DNA from: a virus
Taxonomy: Duplodnaviria; Heunggongvirae; Uroviricota; Caudoviricetes
Strand: one strand, 5' to 3'
Virus record (IMG/VR): IMGVR_UViG_3300000292_000047
DNA: 48,335 nt
In this document: positions 4,467 to 20,710 of the stretch, piece after piece
How the letters are laid out: the number at the start of each line of letters is the position of its first letter
Numbering within the stretch: the first letter of the stretch is position 1
Program-made: the position numbers and the translations under genes
Notes under the pieces: model-generated
Told to the model about the DNA's origin: nothing
The model's database searches: none
The model's input: the letters and a program-made list of their open reading frames with translations, nothing else

Positions 4467-4672
4467 TTATTAATCCTCAAAACTTTATGCCCGGGCGCAA
4501 AAGCACGCGTTTTGTCTTTGCTTATTCGCCAGCCATCCTTGCGCGCCTCTTTTGCACAGCCTGCCCATGACGTACCGATATACTCACCGAAGTCTGGCGA
4601 CTGATATTTACCATTTGTACACTGACGACAATCACAGTAGAGATGCATGGTGTAACTTGCGGCAACAGCCAT
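4463..4672 (-). CDS. Small Cys-rich hypothetical protein
   Basis: ATG at 4670-4672 with AGGAGA SD; 69 aa, HLYCDCRQC...AGC pattern. Confidence 0.4.
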   Translation of the reverse strand: MAVAASYTMHLYCDCRQCTNGKYQSPDFGEYIGTSWAGCAKEARKDGWRISKDKTRAFAPGHKVLRINK

Positions 4673-4673
4673 A

Positions 4674-4865
4674 TCACTCTCCTTTAGTACGCAAGTGGTT
4701 TTTCCAGCGGTTTTGCGCCGCGCTGCGCTTATCTTTGACTCCCTCTCTGGCAATTCCAGAAAATGAAAACAACACCACACGGCGATTGCTAACTCTCAAC
4801 CACTGGCTGGGGTAGCAAAGTCTGTATACACGGGAAATAAGCATCTTTGCTTTACGGTTTTTCAT
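4674..4865 (-). CDS. Small basic hypothetical protein
   Basis: ATG at 4863-4865 with GGGGG SD; stop forms TGATATG junction with next gene. Confidence 0.3.
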   Translation of the reverse strand: MKNRKAKMLISRVYRLCYPSQWLRVSNRRVVLFSFSGIAREGVKDKRSAAQNRWKNHLRTKGE

Positions 4866-5101
4866 CGTTTGCCCCCTGCTTTTCTGCCCTTAACACCATG
4901 CGAGAACCATCATCCAGCTCCCAATTGATTTCACCGCCTTCTGCCATGACAAGATGCCAAACGAGTTGTGCGGCCTCGTTGGTTACATCACAACCGCGAT
5001 CATTGCCTACACGGCGTTTTGTTCCGTCACCTAAATCGCGCATTTTGGCCAACACGATGGTTTTTGATAGCGGTGAAAAACCAAGCTGTAGCCGTGCGGA
5101 A

Positions 5102-12650: not shown

Positions 12651-12674
12651 TAAAAAAGGCCCCCGAAGGGGCCT
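12651..12674. terminator. Hairpin terminator, usable on minus strand (bidirectional candidate)
   Basis: aggcccc-cgaa-ggggcct perfect stem; A-run on plus gives U-run on minus. Confidence 0.6.
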
Positions 12675-12679
12675 AATCG

Positions 12680-12802
12680 CTACTTGCTGCTAATGTTTAT
12701 CGTCACATTCAGAGCGTTATCAGTAATCTTCCAACCCTCCCCATGTGGCGTAAACAAAGCCCCAGTAACAACGATAAAAATACACATACAGTATTTTTTC
12801 AT
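12680..12802 (-). CDS. Small hydrophobic peptide (40 aa), candidate type I toxin-like or exported peptide
   Basis: MKKYCMCIFIVVTGALFTPHGEGWKITDNALNVTINISSK; ATG inside track ORF 12680-12862; terminator immediately downstream. Confidence 0.3.
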   Translation of the reverse strand: MKKYCMCIFIVVTGALFTPHGEGWKITDNALNVTINISSK

Positions 12803-13200
12803 TGTATGGCCCTTACAGGCCGTTTCACGGCATCCCCACCGACGAAAACAACGCGAGAGCAAGCACGGCTGCTTGTGCTTGCATGTACGGCAACGGAGAA
12901 TCCTCCCCTAAAGTCGGTGCCCGGGTGCGAATCGGCGGGAAGGTCCACAGGTATTTTACGATTATTTTAAGATTAGTAATAGGAAAGAAATTAAACGAAA
13001 AAACTCGTTTATTTTCACAAAATCAGTAACCTACCCACAATCTGTGAGTTTGCAGGCACAACAAGAATCACAATTTTTTGAAGCATAATAGTGGACTATT
13101 ATTACCTTTTGGGTAAAATTAACTTGCTGCTTGTGCTTGCGTGGTTGTTTATACAACGACGTTATGCTGAAAGGACCGCGAATCCGATCAGCACGAAAGA

Positions 13201-13309: not shown

Positions 13310-13392
13310 CACTTTCCGAGCCGTAGCAAAATCTACGGTCGGGATTGGAACCCCGTAGACACAATGGCGCATACCGCGTTAGCGGTTTTTTT
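13310..13392 (+). ncRNA. Candidate small structured RNA ending at intrinsic terminator, upstream of antirepressor operon
   Basis: TTGACA at 13285-13290; hairpins ccgtag/ctacgg; terminator accgc-gtta-gcggt + T7 (13373-13392); no ORF. Confidence 0.3.
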
Positions 13393-13558
13393 ATGCGTAA
13401 AGCACTGCTACACCCAAATTATGGTGGGGCGTGCGGGGGAGTCGTAAGACTCGCCGGTTCGTCATTGTGTCCGGTAGTTCCAACCCTGCACGTCTCACCA
13501 CCCAATGATTGGAACCTGACGGTGGTGAGTATCCTTAACCTTTAAGGGAATCATCACA

Positions 13559-13750
13559 ATGACAAACCTACCCCATGACTATTACGTCAACCTCGTAAAG
13601 ATCCTTCTCAAGAAAGCCTCATACGCCGATAAATTCCGCCTGGCTGAAATCATCGAGCGCGAAGCTATGCGCATCGCCAGCAACGATAACGCTGTTTCTG
13701 ACGCAAAAATCTCCCTCGTAACCAAAGTTGTTATGGGAGGTGCAAAATGA
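13559..13750 (+). CDS. Small protein translationally coupled to antirepressor
   Basis: 63 aa; stop overlaps ant start (ATGA). Confidence 0.45.
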   Translation: MTNLPHDYYVNLVKILLKKASYADKFRLAEIIEREAMRIASNDNAVSDAKISLVTKVVMGGAK

Positions 13751-14898
13751 AAACGCTTCCGATCGTTAACACCCTACAGCCTATCCTGCATAATCAGATT
13801 CCAGTAATCACAACTGAGCTACTCGCCCGCCTTTATGGAACAGAAGCAATCCGTATACAGCAAAATCACCATGAAAATAAAACTCGGTTCATTGAGGGGA
13901 AGCACTTCTTTAAAGCTGTTGGTGATGAACTCAAAAATTTGCGACTAGTTTTAAACGAGTCACAAAATGAGGTGCAAATTTCCCCCAAAACTCGCTCTCT
14001 CATCCTCTGGACAGAACGCGGGGCTGCACGTCACGCCAAAATGCTTGAAACTAACCAAGCGTGGGATGTGTTCGAACGGCTGGAAGACTGCTATTTCAAC
14101 CAGAACGCGCAAACGGCCGCGACCGTTACCGTCTCGCCAAACAATCCTCGTGAGGTTGTCGATACGCTCAACGCCAAACCGATGTTTTACATTAAGGTGT
14201 GCAACAACGAGCCACTCACAACCTCAGCCGATGTTGCCCAGGCATTCAGCACCACAAACAATTCCATCGTTATGGCCATCGATGCGTTACGCATTCCTCG
14301 TACAGCTGCGGCACGTCATTTCTTTAAAGAGCAACGACCGCTGGAAGGAAGCGACCGCGAAATAACAATCTATCGCATGACAAAAGACGGATTTACCTTG
14401 CTCATGGAAAGTATCGACGGTCCAGGCGTGAAAGATATCAAGCTGGCCTACATTGAAGCCTTTAACGCTATCAGCAGCGTGTTAAAAACACAGTACGAGC
14501 GTGATCTGGCTAAACGACTGTACCAGGAAAAAACGATTATCCGCGCGGCAACAGAGCATAATCGGCTATTAACAGAACCGAAATACAGGAAGGAACTAAT
14601 CAAGGAGTTTGACAAGGCAACAGGGAAAACCAAAGCGGCGCTAAATCTGCCAGCAATGACTCAGGAAAATGTGATATCAGCCTTACTTCTTGATCTGCTC
14701 AGAAACGCCAGAGCACTTATCAGCTTTGACGAAAACCTGAATCCTCAGCTCAAGCTACTACCACCGACAGGCAAAGTAGTCGACCAGGCTGATCACAACA
14801 GCATACTCAGCGTACTGGATGCAAACCTGCCAGCCAGGACACTACAGGATCTGATAAAAACATGTGCTGATAAGCTGGCACAGAAGAGCAGACCATAA
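13747..14898 (+). CDS. Antirepressor-type regulatory protein (ORF6N-like N-terminus + Rha domain)
   Basis: 383 aa; ITIYRMTKDGFTLLMESIDGPGVKDIKLAYIEAFN matches Rha pattern; GGAGG SD. Confidence 0.7.
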   Translation: MKTLPIVNTLQPILHNQIPVITTELLARLYGTEAIRIQQNHHENKTRFIEGKHFFKAVGDELKNLRLVLNESQNEVQISPKTRSLILWTERGAARHAKMLETNQAWDVFERLEDCYFNQNAQTAATVTVSPNNPREVVDTLNAKPMFYIKVCNNEPLTTSADVAQAFSTTNNSIVMAIDALRIPRTAAARHFFKEQRPLEGSDREITIYRMTKDGFTLLMESIDGPGVKDIKLAYIEAFNAISSVLKTQYERDLAKRLYQEKTIIRAATEHNRLLTEPKYRKELIKEFDKATGKTKAALNLPAMTQENVISALLLDLLRNARALISFDENLNPQLKLLPPTGKVVDQADHNSILSVLDANLPARTLQDLIKTCADKLAQKSRP

Positions 14899-14902
14899 CT
14901 AC

Positions 14903-14930
14903 AAGGGGCTACGGCCCCTTACTCTTTTCT
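14903..14930 (+). terminator. Intrinsic terminator after antirepressor gene
   Basis: aaggggc-tacg-gcccctt followed by actcttttctc. Confidence 0.65.
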
Positions 14931-15636
14931 CTCTTATCAACGCCAGAGACTTTCTGAAAATCCTTTCGAATAGCGTCAGCATCACGCGCTAAGCCCATAC
15001 TGGAACGTGTCGCCATATGACGAAAATGATCAACTGCCGGAAACAAAGAAATAATGGACCCAATAGCTTGCAGCAAACTCGCTTTTCTACGCATCATAAT
15101 TCCACCATAACCGATAACCACCCTTCAGACACAACCCCCCCTCCCCCCATACAGGGTGCCCTTTACCGGAGTTCCGGCCCCTTCTCAAAAGCATCAAAAA
15201 AAGCTCGAGATCGAGTACCGGAACTCATGCCACCAGATAGCTCCACATCGTTTCCAATGCTTCGCCGCCGTGTGCGCCCTGTGGCCCACAATCATGCCAT
15301 TGGTCGTCTGATATACCTTCTTCTGCTCATAGAGCACAGGCGAGTTGTCGCACTCCTACCTTTCTCAGACTCGACTTAGTTTAGATCGCTGTTCCTGGCT
15401 TGCGTCAGCACACTTTCCCCTTGTACGCATACCCGCGCGCCACTTCGCCCAAAAACACCGAACCCAACGAAGTGGCAAAGACAACGACGCGAGCGTGAGT
15501 CTGAAATGGGCACCAGTAAAAAAGGGGTTGCAGGCGCAAAAAGATTTGATTATCTTTAGACGCAAGAAAGCCGCCCCAATCAAGAGGTGTCTTTTTAAAT
15601 CCAGCCTACCAAGCAAGATTTAAATTTCAGACTGAA

Positions 15637-15660
15637 AACCGCCCGGCAAGGCGGTTTTTG
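15637..15660 (+). terminator. Intrinsic terminator closing an ORF-poor region
   Basis: ccgcc-cggcaa-ggcgg + TTTTT. Confidence 0.55.
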
Positions 15661-15719
15661 TCTTTCTGGCGCTTACATTACACCACCATAAAACGATCCG
15701 TAAAGGATCATTTGATCCC

Positions 15720-15980
15720 TTATTCCAATTCTGACGACACTTTAACCTTTTCCCATACAAGGGTTTGCAGCCTTAACAGAATCGCATCTTTATCAAGGTG
15801 TGAAAGATCCTTAACCATATCGTCAAACGACAGAACGCGAATGGCCATCTCAATGACCCTCGGCGGCTCACCCTTCTCATATCGCTTATATGTAGCCAAC
15901 GATATCCCAAACTCTTCGGCGGCTCGCTCCTGCGTCCAGTTCATCCCACGACGCCATAATTTCAATTCGTAACCCGTCAT
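15720..15980 (-). CDS. XRE-family HTH transcriptional regulator
   Basis: 86 aa; LKLWRRGMNWTQERAAEEFGISLATYKRYEKG; GAGGA SD. Confidence 0.65.
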   Translation of the reverse strand: MTGYELKLWRRGMNWTQERAAEEFGISLATYKRYEKGEPPRVIEMAIRVLSFDDMVKDLSHLDKDAILLRLQTLVWEKVKVSSELE

Positions 15981-16081
15981 TACATCCTCTACCTTTCCCT
16001 AGATATTCAATAAATTAGACATAGCCACTCACGACAAAATAAGATGTATTAACAATCCAATCTTTAGGCTTTAGGTAAAAA

Positions 16082-16507
16082 ATGAGTTCATCTGCTTTTG
16101 TCACCGTGGTCACTGGTGTAAGTGTTTTTGTTCTAGGCCAACTCATCGTCAAAGGAGCTATTGAGCCTTACATTTCATTCAGGGAACAACTAGGGAAAAT
16201 ATCCAATCTGTTATTGTGTAACCAAGCAAAAATAGTGAATCCTGGCTCGAACTTAAAGCCAGAAATCATTCATGATCTAAAAGATTCCGCAGCACAGTTA
16301 ATGGCGAAATATTCCACTTTACCTTTCTATATCAAAAAGTTACATATCGGCTTTCGTCTTGTTCCATCAGCCACCGAGATTCTTGGAGCAGCTCGAAATT
16401 TGAACTATATAGCGTCAATACATGAAGGTAAGACTGGGGAGAATCCATCTAGGCATCTCGAAGAGATTGGCCATATGCTCAAAATACCAACTACCTATTC
16501 AAGCTAA
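16082..16507 (+). CDS. Membrane-anchored hypothetical protein (N-terminal TM helix)
   Basis: 141 aa; AFVTVVTGVSVFVLGQLIV helix; divergent from HTH gene; AT-rich. Confidence 0.5.
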   Translation: MSSSAFVTVVTGVSVFVLGQLIVKGAIEPYISFREQLGKISNLLLCNQAKIVNPGSNLKPEIIHDLKDSAAQLMAKYSTLPFYIKKLHIGFRLVPSATEILGAARNLNYIASIHEGKTGENPSRHLEEIGHMLKIPTTYSS

Positions 16508-16575
16508 CCCAATGTAAGTTATCGGCTTGCCCCACAATAAGTTATCTATCTTCAAACGCCCCCTATATTAACACT

Positions 16576-16602
16576 CGCAAAGTGTCAAAATGACACTTTG
16601 CG
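16576..16602. terminator. Perfect 12-bp-arm palindrome between convergent genes (bidirectional terminator candidate)
   Basis: cgcaaagtgtca-aaa-tgacactttgcg. Confidence 0.55.
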
Positions 16603-16610
16603 CATTGTGT

Positions 16611-16991
16611 TTACTTAACGAGGAATAAAAATGGTTTATCGTTCGGCGGTGTAATCGGGGCTGGCTCGCTTTTGCTCATGCGATCAGTGTACCAGGCCAA
16701 CTCCTTGTCAAAGTAAGCCTGATTAAAATAGGCCATGAATGTGGTTTCAAATCCATAACGACCGCTAATACGCAGCATCTGATTGCCGTTCTCTGTTTCC
16801 AGATATACCTGGGCACGTTCCTGATTCTCCTTCAGCCAGGTTAAAGCCTCATCGCACGAGGACAAACGATACTCATCATCGTAGCCGTCATCGATGCGGC
16901 TTGAAGAAGAACGGCAAATCACGCCAACAGAACCAGCCAGGATAGTTTGAATTTTAAGGAAAGCGTTTTTGCGGATTTTAATCATGCTCAT
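16611..16991 (-). CDS. Hypothetical protein driven by leader copy C
   Basis: 126 aa; ATG 16989-16991 directly after leader. Confidence 0.55.
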   Translation of the reverse strand: MSMIKIRKNAFLKIQTILAGSVGVICRSSSSRIDDGYDDEYRLSSCDEALTWLKENQERAQVYLETENGNQMLRISGRYGFETTFMAYFNQAYFDKELAWYTDRMSKSEPAPITPPNDKPFLFLVK

Positions 16992-19263: not shown

Positions 19264-20112
19264 TTAATGTTGGAGTGATTTCCAGGTCTTTCTTAACCTG
19301 TTATAACGCTGCTCAACGAGGGATCGTAAATATGCAAGGTCAGCACCAGGATACATGCCATCAGCAAATTCCTGACTAACCTCTCTGGTGATTTGATGAC
19401 GAAGTTCGGCCTCTCCCTTTTCCCGAACAAGACGCGCAGCTCTCTCCGCTGCTTTCTGTTTTGCCTTTATCTCTCTGGCCGTCTTCCTCTGACGCCATAC
19501 ATTCTCCATCTGCTCCTGAATAACAATACGCTTATAATCAGCCTCCGTTATCGCTTTTTTAAGCCGTTCGCTATTCTTCGCATTGAAGTAATTAAGTTTC
19601 TGGCTAACCGCACGTCTCCATGCTTGTTCAGTAATACCAACGGTTTCCAGCAGTTGATCACGAATCTCTATTTTCGCTGGCCAATACTGTTTATTCACCC
19701 GATCCCAGCGACGTTCATAATCAATAAAACCTAACGCTTTCAGTTGCGACAACGCCCTTGTACAGCGCGTTATAGACTTGTTCCCAGCTTCGGATACGGT
19801 AGACAGGCCGCAAAAATCAGCCAACGCCTCAGCACTAGCCAGAACCCGCTTAGAAATGATGTTTACATGGTGCAAAATCGCAGCGATCACAGCATTAATC
19901 GCCCGACGACGATGCTCGTTTATCCGGCGCTTCCGCTCTGACGGTTGATTAACGTAGAACGCAACCTCACACGTAAGATCACGCCCATTAATGCGCTGTA
20001 AAGCATCAGATAACACCAGCGGCAGCTTGTGCGTATGGTGCTTTGGAGGCTGGAACTCCGGCGACAAATTACAAACGTAAGCTGAACGTAGAGACGGCAT
20101 TGGTCTATCCAT
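19264..20112 (-). CDS. repA: IncFII-type (RepFIIA-like) replication initiator RepA; in-frame upstream ATG at 20244 possible
   Basis: RRRAINAVI and GLSTVSEAGNKSITRCTRALSQLKALGFIDYE align by eye with R100 RepA1 (RRRAIDALL, GLATESAAGKLSITRATRALTFLSELGLITYQ); ATG 20110-20112. Confidence 0.7.
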   Translation of the reverse strand: MDRPMPSLRSAYVCNLSPEFQPPKHHTHKLPLVLSDALQRINGRDLTCEVAFYVNQPSERKRRINEHRRRAINAVIAAILHHVNIISKRVLASAEALADFCGLSTVSEAGNKSITRCTRALSQLKALGFIDYERRWDRVNKQYWPAKIEIRDQLLETVGITEQAWRRAVSQKLNYFNAKNSERLKKAITEADYKRIVIQEQMENVWRQRKTAREIKAKQKAAERAARLVREKGEAELRHQITREVSQEFADGMYPGADLAYLRSLVEQRYNRLRKTWKSLQH

Positions 20113-20156
20113 ATGTTCGCTCTTGCGTCCACGGAAAACCAACGTATAATGGGAGT

Positions 20157-20237
20157 TGTCGAGGCGCCCATGGATTGTTGTTGTTGGTTTTCCGTGGATG
20201 TCGCAAGAAGCCCGCAGATTTATCTGCGGGCTTTTTG
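20157..20237 (+). ncRNA. CopA-like antisense RNA countertranscript to repA leader
   Basis: TTGCGT-N16-TATAAT at 20123-20150; strong terminator gcccgcaga-ttta-tctgcgggc + T5 at 20210-20236. Confidence 0.55.
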
Positions 20238-20710
20238 TTTCCATATCTGGTCACTTTCCAACCAGACACCCACAATCATAACCACGTTACGTGGTTTTAA
20301 GAGAACTCTACCACAACACTTTCGGTCATGCACGAAGTCTCTCACTGATCGAACGATAATCCACCAGTAAAAGGATCTAAATTGGATCTCGTTTTGCGAG
20401 CATCATACTACTGGCCTAACTCCAGTCAATGATTCCCAGCCAGAAACCTGCGGTAAACTCATCGTTCAGCAATATGCTGTCCGGCTTCAAAGATAAGGTG
20501 ACATCATCCCTTAACAGCGCGGCCAGTTCAGTTAAAGGGCTGTTCTGATTTAATGCTGGCCACTCATACCTGGTAATAAGTGGTCAGTCTTAACACTCAC
20601 CATTTGATTGCACCCGTGTTGACGATTTGTTACTGGATATCAGACACGCTGGATAGCCAGTAGAAACATACCATTAAAATTATTACAATAATTGGTCACA
20701 TGATTATCTT

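Follow-up and report, generated by a model that had tools for sequence, protein, structure and literature searches.

T4 Imm and HK97 gp15 are single inner-membrane exclusion proteins, each of which is sufficient alone. P22 SieA similarly suffices as a single protein at the cytoplasmic membrane, where the entry of DNA is blocked (PMC10883804). The subject of the present analysis is the gene for a protein of 141 amino acids (aa) in the IMG/VR virus record IMGVR_UViG_3300000292_000047 (Caudoviricetes), a stretch of 48 335 nucleotides that is referred to, at its full length, as the window. The region around the gene was matched by circular E. coli plasmids of 47-57 kb at ~99% identity and by three Yersinia phages (vB_YpM_39, vB_YpM_41 and vB_YpM_44), and the window is therefore a ~48-kb phage-plasmid of E. 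coli. The 141-aa protein, a member of the functionally unannotated family PHROG 7512, resembles SieA, Imm and gp15 in being a small, predicted inner-membrane protein that is encoded by a temperate element from a putative transcription unit of its own. It differs from them in having no sequence or profile similarity to any of the three, and in its predicted layout of one transmembrane (TM) helix, almost nothing in the periplasm and a cytoplasmic bundle. In contrast to these proteins its family is not bound to one phage lineage, and is also found on conjugative plasmids.

The defence hotspots of P2 include the tail-gene (Z/fun) and integrase-primase positions (PMC13586616, a 2026 survey; see also PMC9122126), and hotspot cargo moves among different kinds of mobile element (PMC13586616). 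PHROG 7512 is comparable to P2 hotspot cargo (Z/fun, old/tin and integrase-primase), and to other defence systems of one gene that shuttle among mobile elements, in that members occupy the Z/fun and integrase-primase slots and copies occur in unrelated mobile elements; it is unlike such cargo in showing no homology to PADLOC-DB 2.0.0, and the copy in the window lies in the accessory region of a phage-plasmid rather than in a P2 hotspot. With the abortive-infection effectors (lambda RexB and the TM effectors of CBASS, Pycsar and retrons) the protein shares the character of a predicted membrane effector with a conserved TM segment and a variable cytoplasmic part, which might take up the signal. 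Those effectors, however, work with a separate sensor or signal partner and usually have at least two TM helices, whereas the 141-aa protein is solitary and has one.

The cassette and the backbone around it

An earlier note on this DNA had described a terminator-bounded two-gene island, in which an 86-aa XRE helix-turn-helix (HTH) regulator was paired with a membrane-anchored effector. The list of open reading frames (ORFs) places both genes where the note had put them, hydropathy confirmed the single N-terminal TM helix of the 141-aa protein, and terminator-like hairpins were detected on either side by scanning and folding z-scores. The features of the locus are as follows.

15633-15660: left hairpin, GC-rich, preceded by an A-tract and followed by a T-tract, downstream of the XRE gene (terminator scan; folding)
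15720-15980, minus strand: 86-aa XRE-family HTH protein, PHROG 6962, function unknown (Pfam HTH_3)
15990-16564, plus strand: inserted variable cassette of ~575 bp and 39.0% GC, consisting of the 141-aa gene and its upstream region (three-way alignment; BLAST)
16016-16045, plus strand: candidate sigma-70 promoter-like site, TAGACA-18-TAAGAT (9/12 consensus matches)
16073-16076, plus strand: AGGT as a Shine-Dalgarno-like motif, 5 nt upstream of the start codon (ATG) of the 141-aa gene (read from the sequence)
16082-16507, plus strand: 141-aa protein, PHROG 7512, function unknown (ORF list; profile match)
16094-16150, plus strand: TM helix, codons 5-23 of the 141-aa gene (hydropathy; column conservation)
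16576-16602: right hairpin, a perfect 12-bp inverted repeat with a 3-nt loop (scan; folding; alignment)
16611-16991, minus strand: 126-aa backbone ORF, PHROG 8090, function unknown, without a Pfam match

Relatives with and without the proposed island, a comparison that the earlier note had called for, were drawn from the 72 E. coli records that match positions 15400-16900. All 72 matched the region that includes the two hairpins and the XRE and 126-aa genes; 13 covered it fully, while the middle part, which holds the 141-aa gene, was missing from the other 59. The window was then aligned with AR_0015, a plasmid without the cassette, and with phage vB_YpM_41. All three have near-identical versions of the left hairpin, the XRE gene up to its ATG and Shine-Dalgarno sequence, the right palindrome and the 126-aa gene, and only ~15990-16564 was specific to the window. 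The limits of backbone homology by BLAST were 15989 and 16565, and AR_0015 has ~8 bp in the place of the cassette, which sits between the XRE start codon and Shine-Dalgarno sequence on one side and the backbone palindrome on the other.

These data show that the locus is a one-gene insertion into a backbone that already held both hairpins. As the hairpins and the XRE gene are near-identical in relatives without the 141-aa gene, they are backbone and not the borders of an island. The 141-aa gene was acquired separately, the limits drawn for the two-gene island were wrong, and the pairing of regulator and effector was not supported, the XRE gene being retained by the 59 records that lack its supposed partner. 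Recognition of the XRE gene and both hairpins as backbone is a useful correction for annotation and for guilt-by-association screens, even without a phenotype.

The cassette has a GC content of 39.0%, whereas the XRE and 126-aa genes have 46.7% and 45.7%, respectively, and the window as a whole 44.5%. The AT-richness that had been ascribed to the pair as a whole therefore applies to the 141-aa gene (39.9% GC) and the intergenic DNA (31.7%) but not to the XRE gene, whose neighbours range from 45.7 to 47.3%. The description of the 141-aa gene as a moron (in the sense of Hendrix and Juhala) was borne out by its presence or absence, with clean junctions, among otherwise near-identical plasmids and by a base composition that differs from that of its flanks (39.0% against 45.7-46.7% GC); family members in lambdoid prophages also lie on the strand opposite the operon. 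It departs from a classical moron in that the terminators bracketing it in the window, including the downstream hairpin, belong to the backbone, and its promoter is only a consensus match: two promoter-like sites were found in the region against 4.4 expected from shuffled sequences, and the 9/12 candidate does not rise above chance. DNA similarity between the cassette and other carriers is confined to the 141-aa ORF and stops at its ends. The ends of the cassette were also searched for direct or inverted flanking repeats and for sites of recombination, with nothing above chance.

The same junction (window ~15981-15990) carries an unrelated insert of ~320 bp in vB_YpM_41 (L003, ~4582-4921). This insert has 27/28-nt terminal inverted repeats (GGGGTTCCGTGGGCATTTCTGCGATAA) and an ATAGC target duplication, and for these reasons it looks like a miniature inverted-repeat transposable element (MITE). 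The cassette and the MITE-like element share the XRE start-codon junction, so that more than one insertion has occurred there; in this little-studied ~48-kb type of phage-plasmid the start-codon junction of a regulator is a repeated insertion target.

The XRE ORF matched Pfam HTH_3 (PF01381) at 29.9 bits (cut-off 23, E = 5.8e-7), which places it in the XRE/HTH_3 family as the earlier note had it, and matched PHROG 6962 at E = 9e-45. Four relatives were inspected, three of them without the 141-aa gene, and it is annotated in each. Among phages, its nearest homologues are regulators of lytic Klebsiella, Erwinia and Serratia phages, and no match to the 141-aa protein was found by tblastn in the lytic-phage records that hold XRE homologues. 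The XRE gene is a conserved backbone gene and no specific partner of the 141-aa gene. At its 3' end (~15720) cassette carriers read TAA, giving 86 aa, and cassette-less relatives read CAA, giving a protein of 90 aa that is four codons longer.

The terminator scan returned nine hairpins in 3.3 kb, compared with 3.0 +/- 1.8 in shuffled sequences. The left hairpin, which is identical in relatives without the cassette, folds at -18.6 and -18.2 kcal/mol on the plus and minus strands (z = -2.5 and -3.0) and looks like a bidirectional intrinsic terminator. The right hairpin gave folding z-scores of -5.7 and -5.2 on the two strands, occurs once in the window and was kept in all three aligned arrangements. 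In cassette-less relatives this palindrome lies between the 126-aa gene and the start of the XRE gene, ~25 bp upstream of the XRE ATG, and, read on the strand of the XRE gene, it includes a perfect TTGACA. It may terminate transcription of the 126-aa gene, serve the XRE gene as an operator or promoter element, or do both, and in the window transcripts of the 141-aa gene may end at it as well. Further copies of its half-site, as would serve as operators, were searched for and none was found, including in the 101-bp divergent region between the XRE and 141-aa genes. In AR_0015 and similar cassette-less relatives the 126-aa and XRE genes are on one strand, with 64 bp between them that include the palindrome, an arrangement that may represent a backbone two-gene unit which the cassette has split. 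Through the insertion the palindrome came to lie ~575 bp farther from the XRE gene, with a convergent gene in the space between; on this comparison of sequences the cassette, instead of being under XRE control, may have upset the expression of the XRE gene.

The PHROG 7512 protein and the elements that carry it

The 141-aa protein is ~1% divergent from RefSeq WP_016240784.1 and matched PHROG 7512 over positions 1-141 of 141 (E = 1.7e-73). It has 36 close homologue clusters, with homologues down to E = 3e-84, and every close relative, at 55-99% identity, bears the name 'hypothetical'. When 1.84 billion representative proteins were searched with a profile, 701 clusters at 50% identity had E <= 1e-3, of which 124 reached E <= 1e-10; nearly all were 135-180 aa long. 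For conservation, topology and further profile searches the family was represented by a sample of 72 diverse members, every one of which matched PHROG 7512. The dN/dS ratio among enterobacterial copies was 0.15-0.30, which shows purifying selection, and the ORF was intact in every full-length carrier examined. The 141-aa ORF, like the XRE ORF, is a real gene, and PHROG 7512 is a large, uniform and uncharacterised family.

The earlier note had recognised no family for the effector, and PHROG 7512, itself unannotated, was the only one matched here. The query matched nothing in Pfam or NCBIfam, and the 72 members matched nothing in Pfam. Among the PHROGs at E <= 1 the query hit only 7512 and the equally unannotated 13090 (E = 0.14), and the 72 members gave a single stray match to an annotated PHROG at E <= 0.01, the terminase small-subunit family. 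A profile search of the PDB yielded a chance-level match only. The longer homologues, inspected for domain fusions, showed only N-terminal extensions or extra TM helices and one fused C-terminal tail, which was unrelated by eye.

A single hydrophobic segment, at residues 5-23, was found by hydropathy analysis (Kyte-Doolittle 19-residue maximum 2.23; next best elsewhere 0.73). The AlphaFold2 model, with a predicted local distance difference test (pLDDT) score of 79.5, has a helix at residues 4-46, the first half of which is the TM segment and which continues into a four-helix bundle; fold searches returned generic helical bundles only. In the 72 members the N-terminal flank averages 3.6 residues with 0.14 lysine plus arginine, whereas the 15 residues after the TM helix hold 2.7 on average and exceed the N-terminal flank in all 72. 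Members with an additional N-terminal signal peptide or TM helix are also consistent with a cytoplasmic C-terminus. The protein is accordingly predicted to be a bitopic inner-membrane protein of N-out/C-in topology, with ~3 residues in the periplasm and a four-helix bundle of ~115 residues in the cytoplasm.

Column conservation in the same sample was 0.57 for the TM helix and 0.39-0.44 for bundle helices 2-4, and both the bundle helices and the loop at 115-122 are far more variable than the TM helix. That the TM helix should be the most conserved segment is unusual for a membrane anchor. The conserved positions of the helix are T8, G12, V13, V15, F16, G19 and Q20; T8, G12, V13, V15, F16 and Q20 are conserved at 75-96%, and they are followed by K24 (79%) and P29 (99%). 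Conservation falls on one helical face, with a conservation moment of 0.476 that was reached by only 2 of 10 000 shuffles. The constraint on one TM face suggests a specific helix-helix contact, either with the protein itself or with a conserved host protein.

Family members were located in plasmids, phages and chromosomes, and the carriers span several gammaproteobacterial orders. PLSDB holds 347 records of enterobacterial plasmids with the family, of which 264 are conjugative. Salmonella plasmids carry the homologue after Phd/ParE or Abi_2; it is also present on plasmids of the sitABCD type and, near a resolvase and ParA, on plasmids of the microcin-C type. In phage D6 and D6-like contigs it lies between humD and phd/doc. 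Three distinct lambdoid prophage lineages have it between the replication genes and NinB/DUF1367, on the strand opposite the early operon, and these lambdoid variants are 40-43% identical to the protein of the window. In Chromohalobacter P2-like prophages it is found between the sheath and tail-fibre genes, again on the opposite strand, a position that we take to be the P2 Z/fun slot. A GpA-encoding element has it between integrase and primase, one homologue occurs in an integrase-adjacent island, and a chromosomal homologue adjoins a ThsA-Macro-like gene. Two more context types were of no recognisable class.

The homologue was solitary in every sampled context, with no conserved neighbour family. 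An HTH gene was missing from its side in 11 of the 12 other context types examined; the remaining type, which is metagenomic, has an ORF with an Xre-related antitoxin domain ~300 bp upstream of the homologue. Each of 22 neighbouring proteins (the XRE and 126-aa proteins of the window and 20 from related loci) was compared with all the others by BLAST, which revealed no conserved partner gene and one related pair only. PHROG 7512 members move singly among temperate phages and plasmids and settle in accessory and defence hotspots.

The related pair consisted of proteins of 159 and 167 aa with an N-terminal TM segment (L008:4404-4883, minus strand, and L005:7022-7525, minus strand), 54% identical and from two plasmid types, where they lie beside the homologue. 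They make up a second unannotated family, which hhalign showed not to be homologous to PHROG 7512. Several other neighbours in prophage hotspots (L017, L018) are small proteins with TM-like hydrophobic stretches by eye and without a Pfam match.

Possible functions of the 141-aa protein

At present the 141-aa gene is an uncharacterised accessory gene of a familiar kind. From its context, the protein may protect its carrier against incoming phages at the inner membrane, the likeliest of the readings considered, to which we would give a probability of about 0.4; a role in superinfection exclusion (Sie) or abortive infection, as suggested in the earlier note, is a reasonable guess. The protein would be produced during residency of the element, from a promoter of its own and without involvement of the XRE protein, and would act at the inner membrane against incoming phages. 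Sensing or regulation would be the task of the variable cytoplasmic bundle. The effector would be the invariant TM face (T8, G12, F16, G19 and Q20), which self-associates or engages a conserved host membrane protein. Once infection was sensed the membrane would be compromised or closed, in a manner like that of abortive infection. This division into sensor and effector is favoured because the pattern of conservation reverses that of a mere anchor, and because the spread over unrelated elements is that of general defence cargo and not of a lineage-specific Sie protein; the abortive-infection-like step, taken on its own, is nevertheless doubtful.

Several observations weigh against protection. 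The promoter-like site is a 9/12 match that does not exceed chance, and expression during residency is therefore assumed. The hotspots are enriched for defence genes, but residence there is no proof, as other lysogenic-conversion genes are found in them too. The overall dN/dS shows no sign of an arms race. Against PADLOC-DB 2.0.0 the query had no matches at E <= 1 and the 72 members had only scattered single matches at E >= 0.0045, and there was no match to the annotated exclusion PHROGs (SieA, SieB, Imm, Sp, Sim, Cor, gp15, Ltp and others). A literature search by protein accession found no paper.

A strict form of superinfection exclusion would have the protein made constitutively in the inner membrane, where it blocks translocation of incoming phage DNA and leaves the cell unharmed. 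It might do so as P22 SieA, T4 Imm and HK97 gp15 do, by disturbing, inside the membrane, either the injection conduit or a host membrane protein on which DNA entry depends. A small predicted inner-membrane protein with a putative transcription unit of its own, carried by prophages and phage-plasmids, would suit this role, the conserved TM face suggests a specific intramembrane partner, and SieA demonstrates that one inner-membrane protein can suffice (PMC10883804). Only ~3-4 residues, however, are predicted to reach the periplasm, where the conduits of ejection proteins assemble; the known Sie proteins are lineage-bound and exclude phages related to that lineage, whereas this family is common to lambdoid, P2-like and P1/D6-like phages and conjugative plasmids; and the comparison with annotated exclusion PHROGs gave nothing in its favour. 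Such a constitutive block of DNA entry is unlikely in itself, yet nearly as likely as the abortive-infection-like version. Alternatively the protein may boost the fitness of its carrier without any part in defence, by modulating host membrane proteins, by tolerance of envelope stress or in competition between plasmids or during conjugation. Most PLSDB carriers are conjugative, including virulence plasmids of the sitABCD type and microcin-C plasmids, and hold the gene amid maintenance genes (ParA, resolvase and toxin-antitoxin), a TM face conserved across orders fits a conserved host partner, and PADLOC provided no link to defence. This explanation, which accounts less readily for recurrence at documented P2-like defence hotspots, for use of the same antisense slot in three lambdoid lineages or for the adjoining Abi_2 and ThsA-like genes, is rather improbable.

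The idea that the XRE and 141-aa proteins form an insulated regulator-effector or toxin-antitoxin-like module, in which the former controls or neutralises the latter, draws on the divergent arrangement of the two genes, 101 bp apart in the window, and on weak, sub-threshold matches of the XRE protein to antitoxin HTH models of the MqsA/HipB type. Co-inheritance was not found, the 59 cassette-less records and the Yersinia phages having the XRE gene alone; the sampled homologues, one metagenomic context excepted, lack an adjacent HTH gene; the XRE gene has the GC content of the backbone, homology with other carriers ends at the ORF ends, and the backbone palindrome has no copy in the divergent promoter region. 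As an evolutionary unit the module is already contradicted, and the model is very improbable. The smallest probability attaches to a decaying or functionless hitch-hiker at a recombination-prone junction. The MITE-like element that the same junction accepted in vB_YpM_41 lends it some plausibility, but intact ORFs in the full-length carriers, a dN/dS of 0.15-0.30 and 701 clusters of constant length and architecture effectively refute it.

If the protective reading is correct, the family would rank with the smallest self-contained modules for defence or exclusion, at ~145 aa, with a single TM helix and without a partner gene. It is possible, though tentatively held, that PHROG 7512 represents a new and widespread single-gene membrane anti-phage system, with the TM face as effector and the bundle as phage sensor, on a ~0.5-kb cassette that shuttles among lambdoid, P2-like and P1/D6-like phages, phage-plasmids and conjugative plasmids. 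As the family is not in PADLOC-DB 2.0.0, scans based on that database would miss it. Its presence in prophages and on many virulence, resistance and colicin plasmids of E. coli and Salmonella means that it could affect the host range of phage therapy and the stability of those plasmids.

Other features of the phage-plasmid

The ~48-kb type to which the window belongs is not among the ten typed phage-plasmid groups of PMC12977533, and a literature search for the related Yersinia phages found no paper on this phage-plasmid type. Between 21 and 46 kb the minus strand has a series of large ORFs, which may represent the virion genes. The following features were located on either side of the locus.

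12652-12948, minus strand: full-length match to ryfA RNA (141.8 bits)
13320-13392, plus strand: isrK
13417-13505, plus strand: C4 antisense RNA
13747-14898, plus strand: intact gene for an ORF6N/Rha antirepressor of 383 aa
17155-17807: Gp49(HigB)-type toxin and HTH pair
19264-20244: IncFII-type RepA gene

The combination of isrK, C4 antisense RNA and ORF6N/Rha antirepressor constitutes an immunity region of the P1 immI type. Between the antirepressor gene and the left terminator lie 734 bp (14899-15632) with a GC content of 0.50 and a strongly negative GC skew; no ORF with family support was found in them, and relatives annotate only one 62-aa hypothetical protein there. In the plasmid of E. 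coli AR_0067, a relative of 99.4% identity (L001, 165-3260), an IS21 element (istA/istB) splits the antirepressor gene into ORF6N and Rha fragments.

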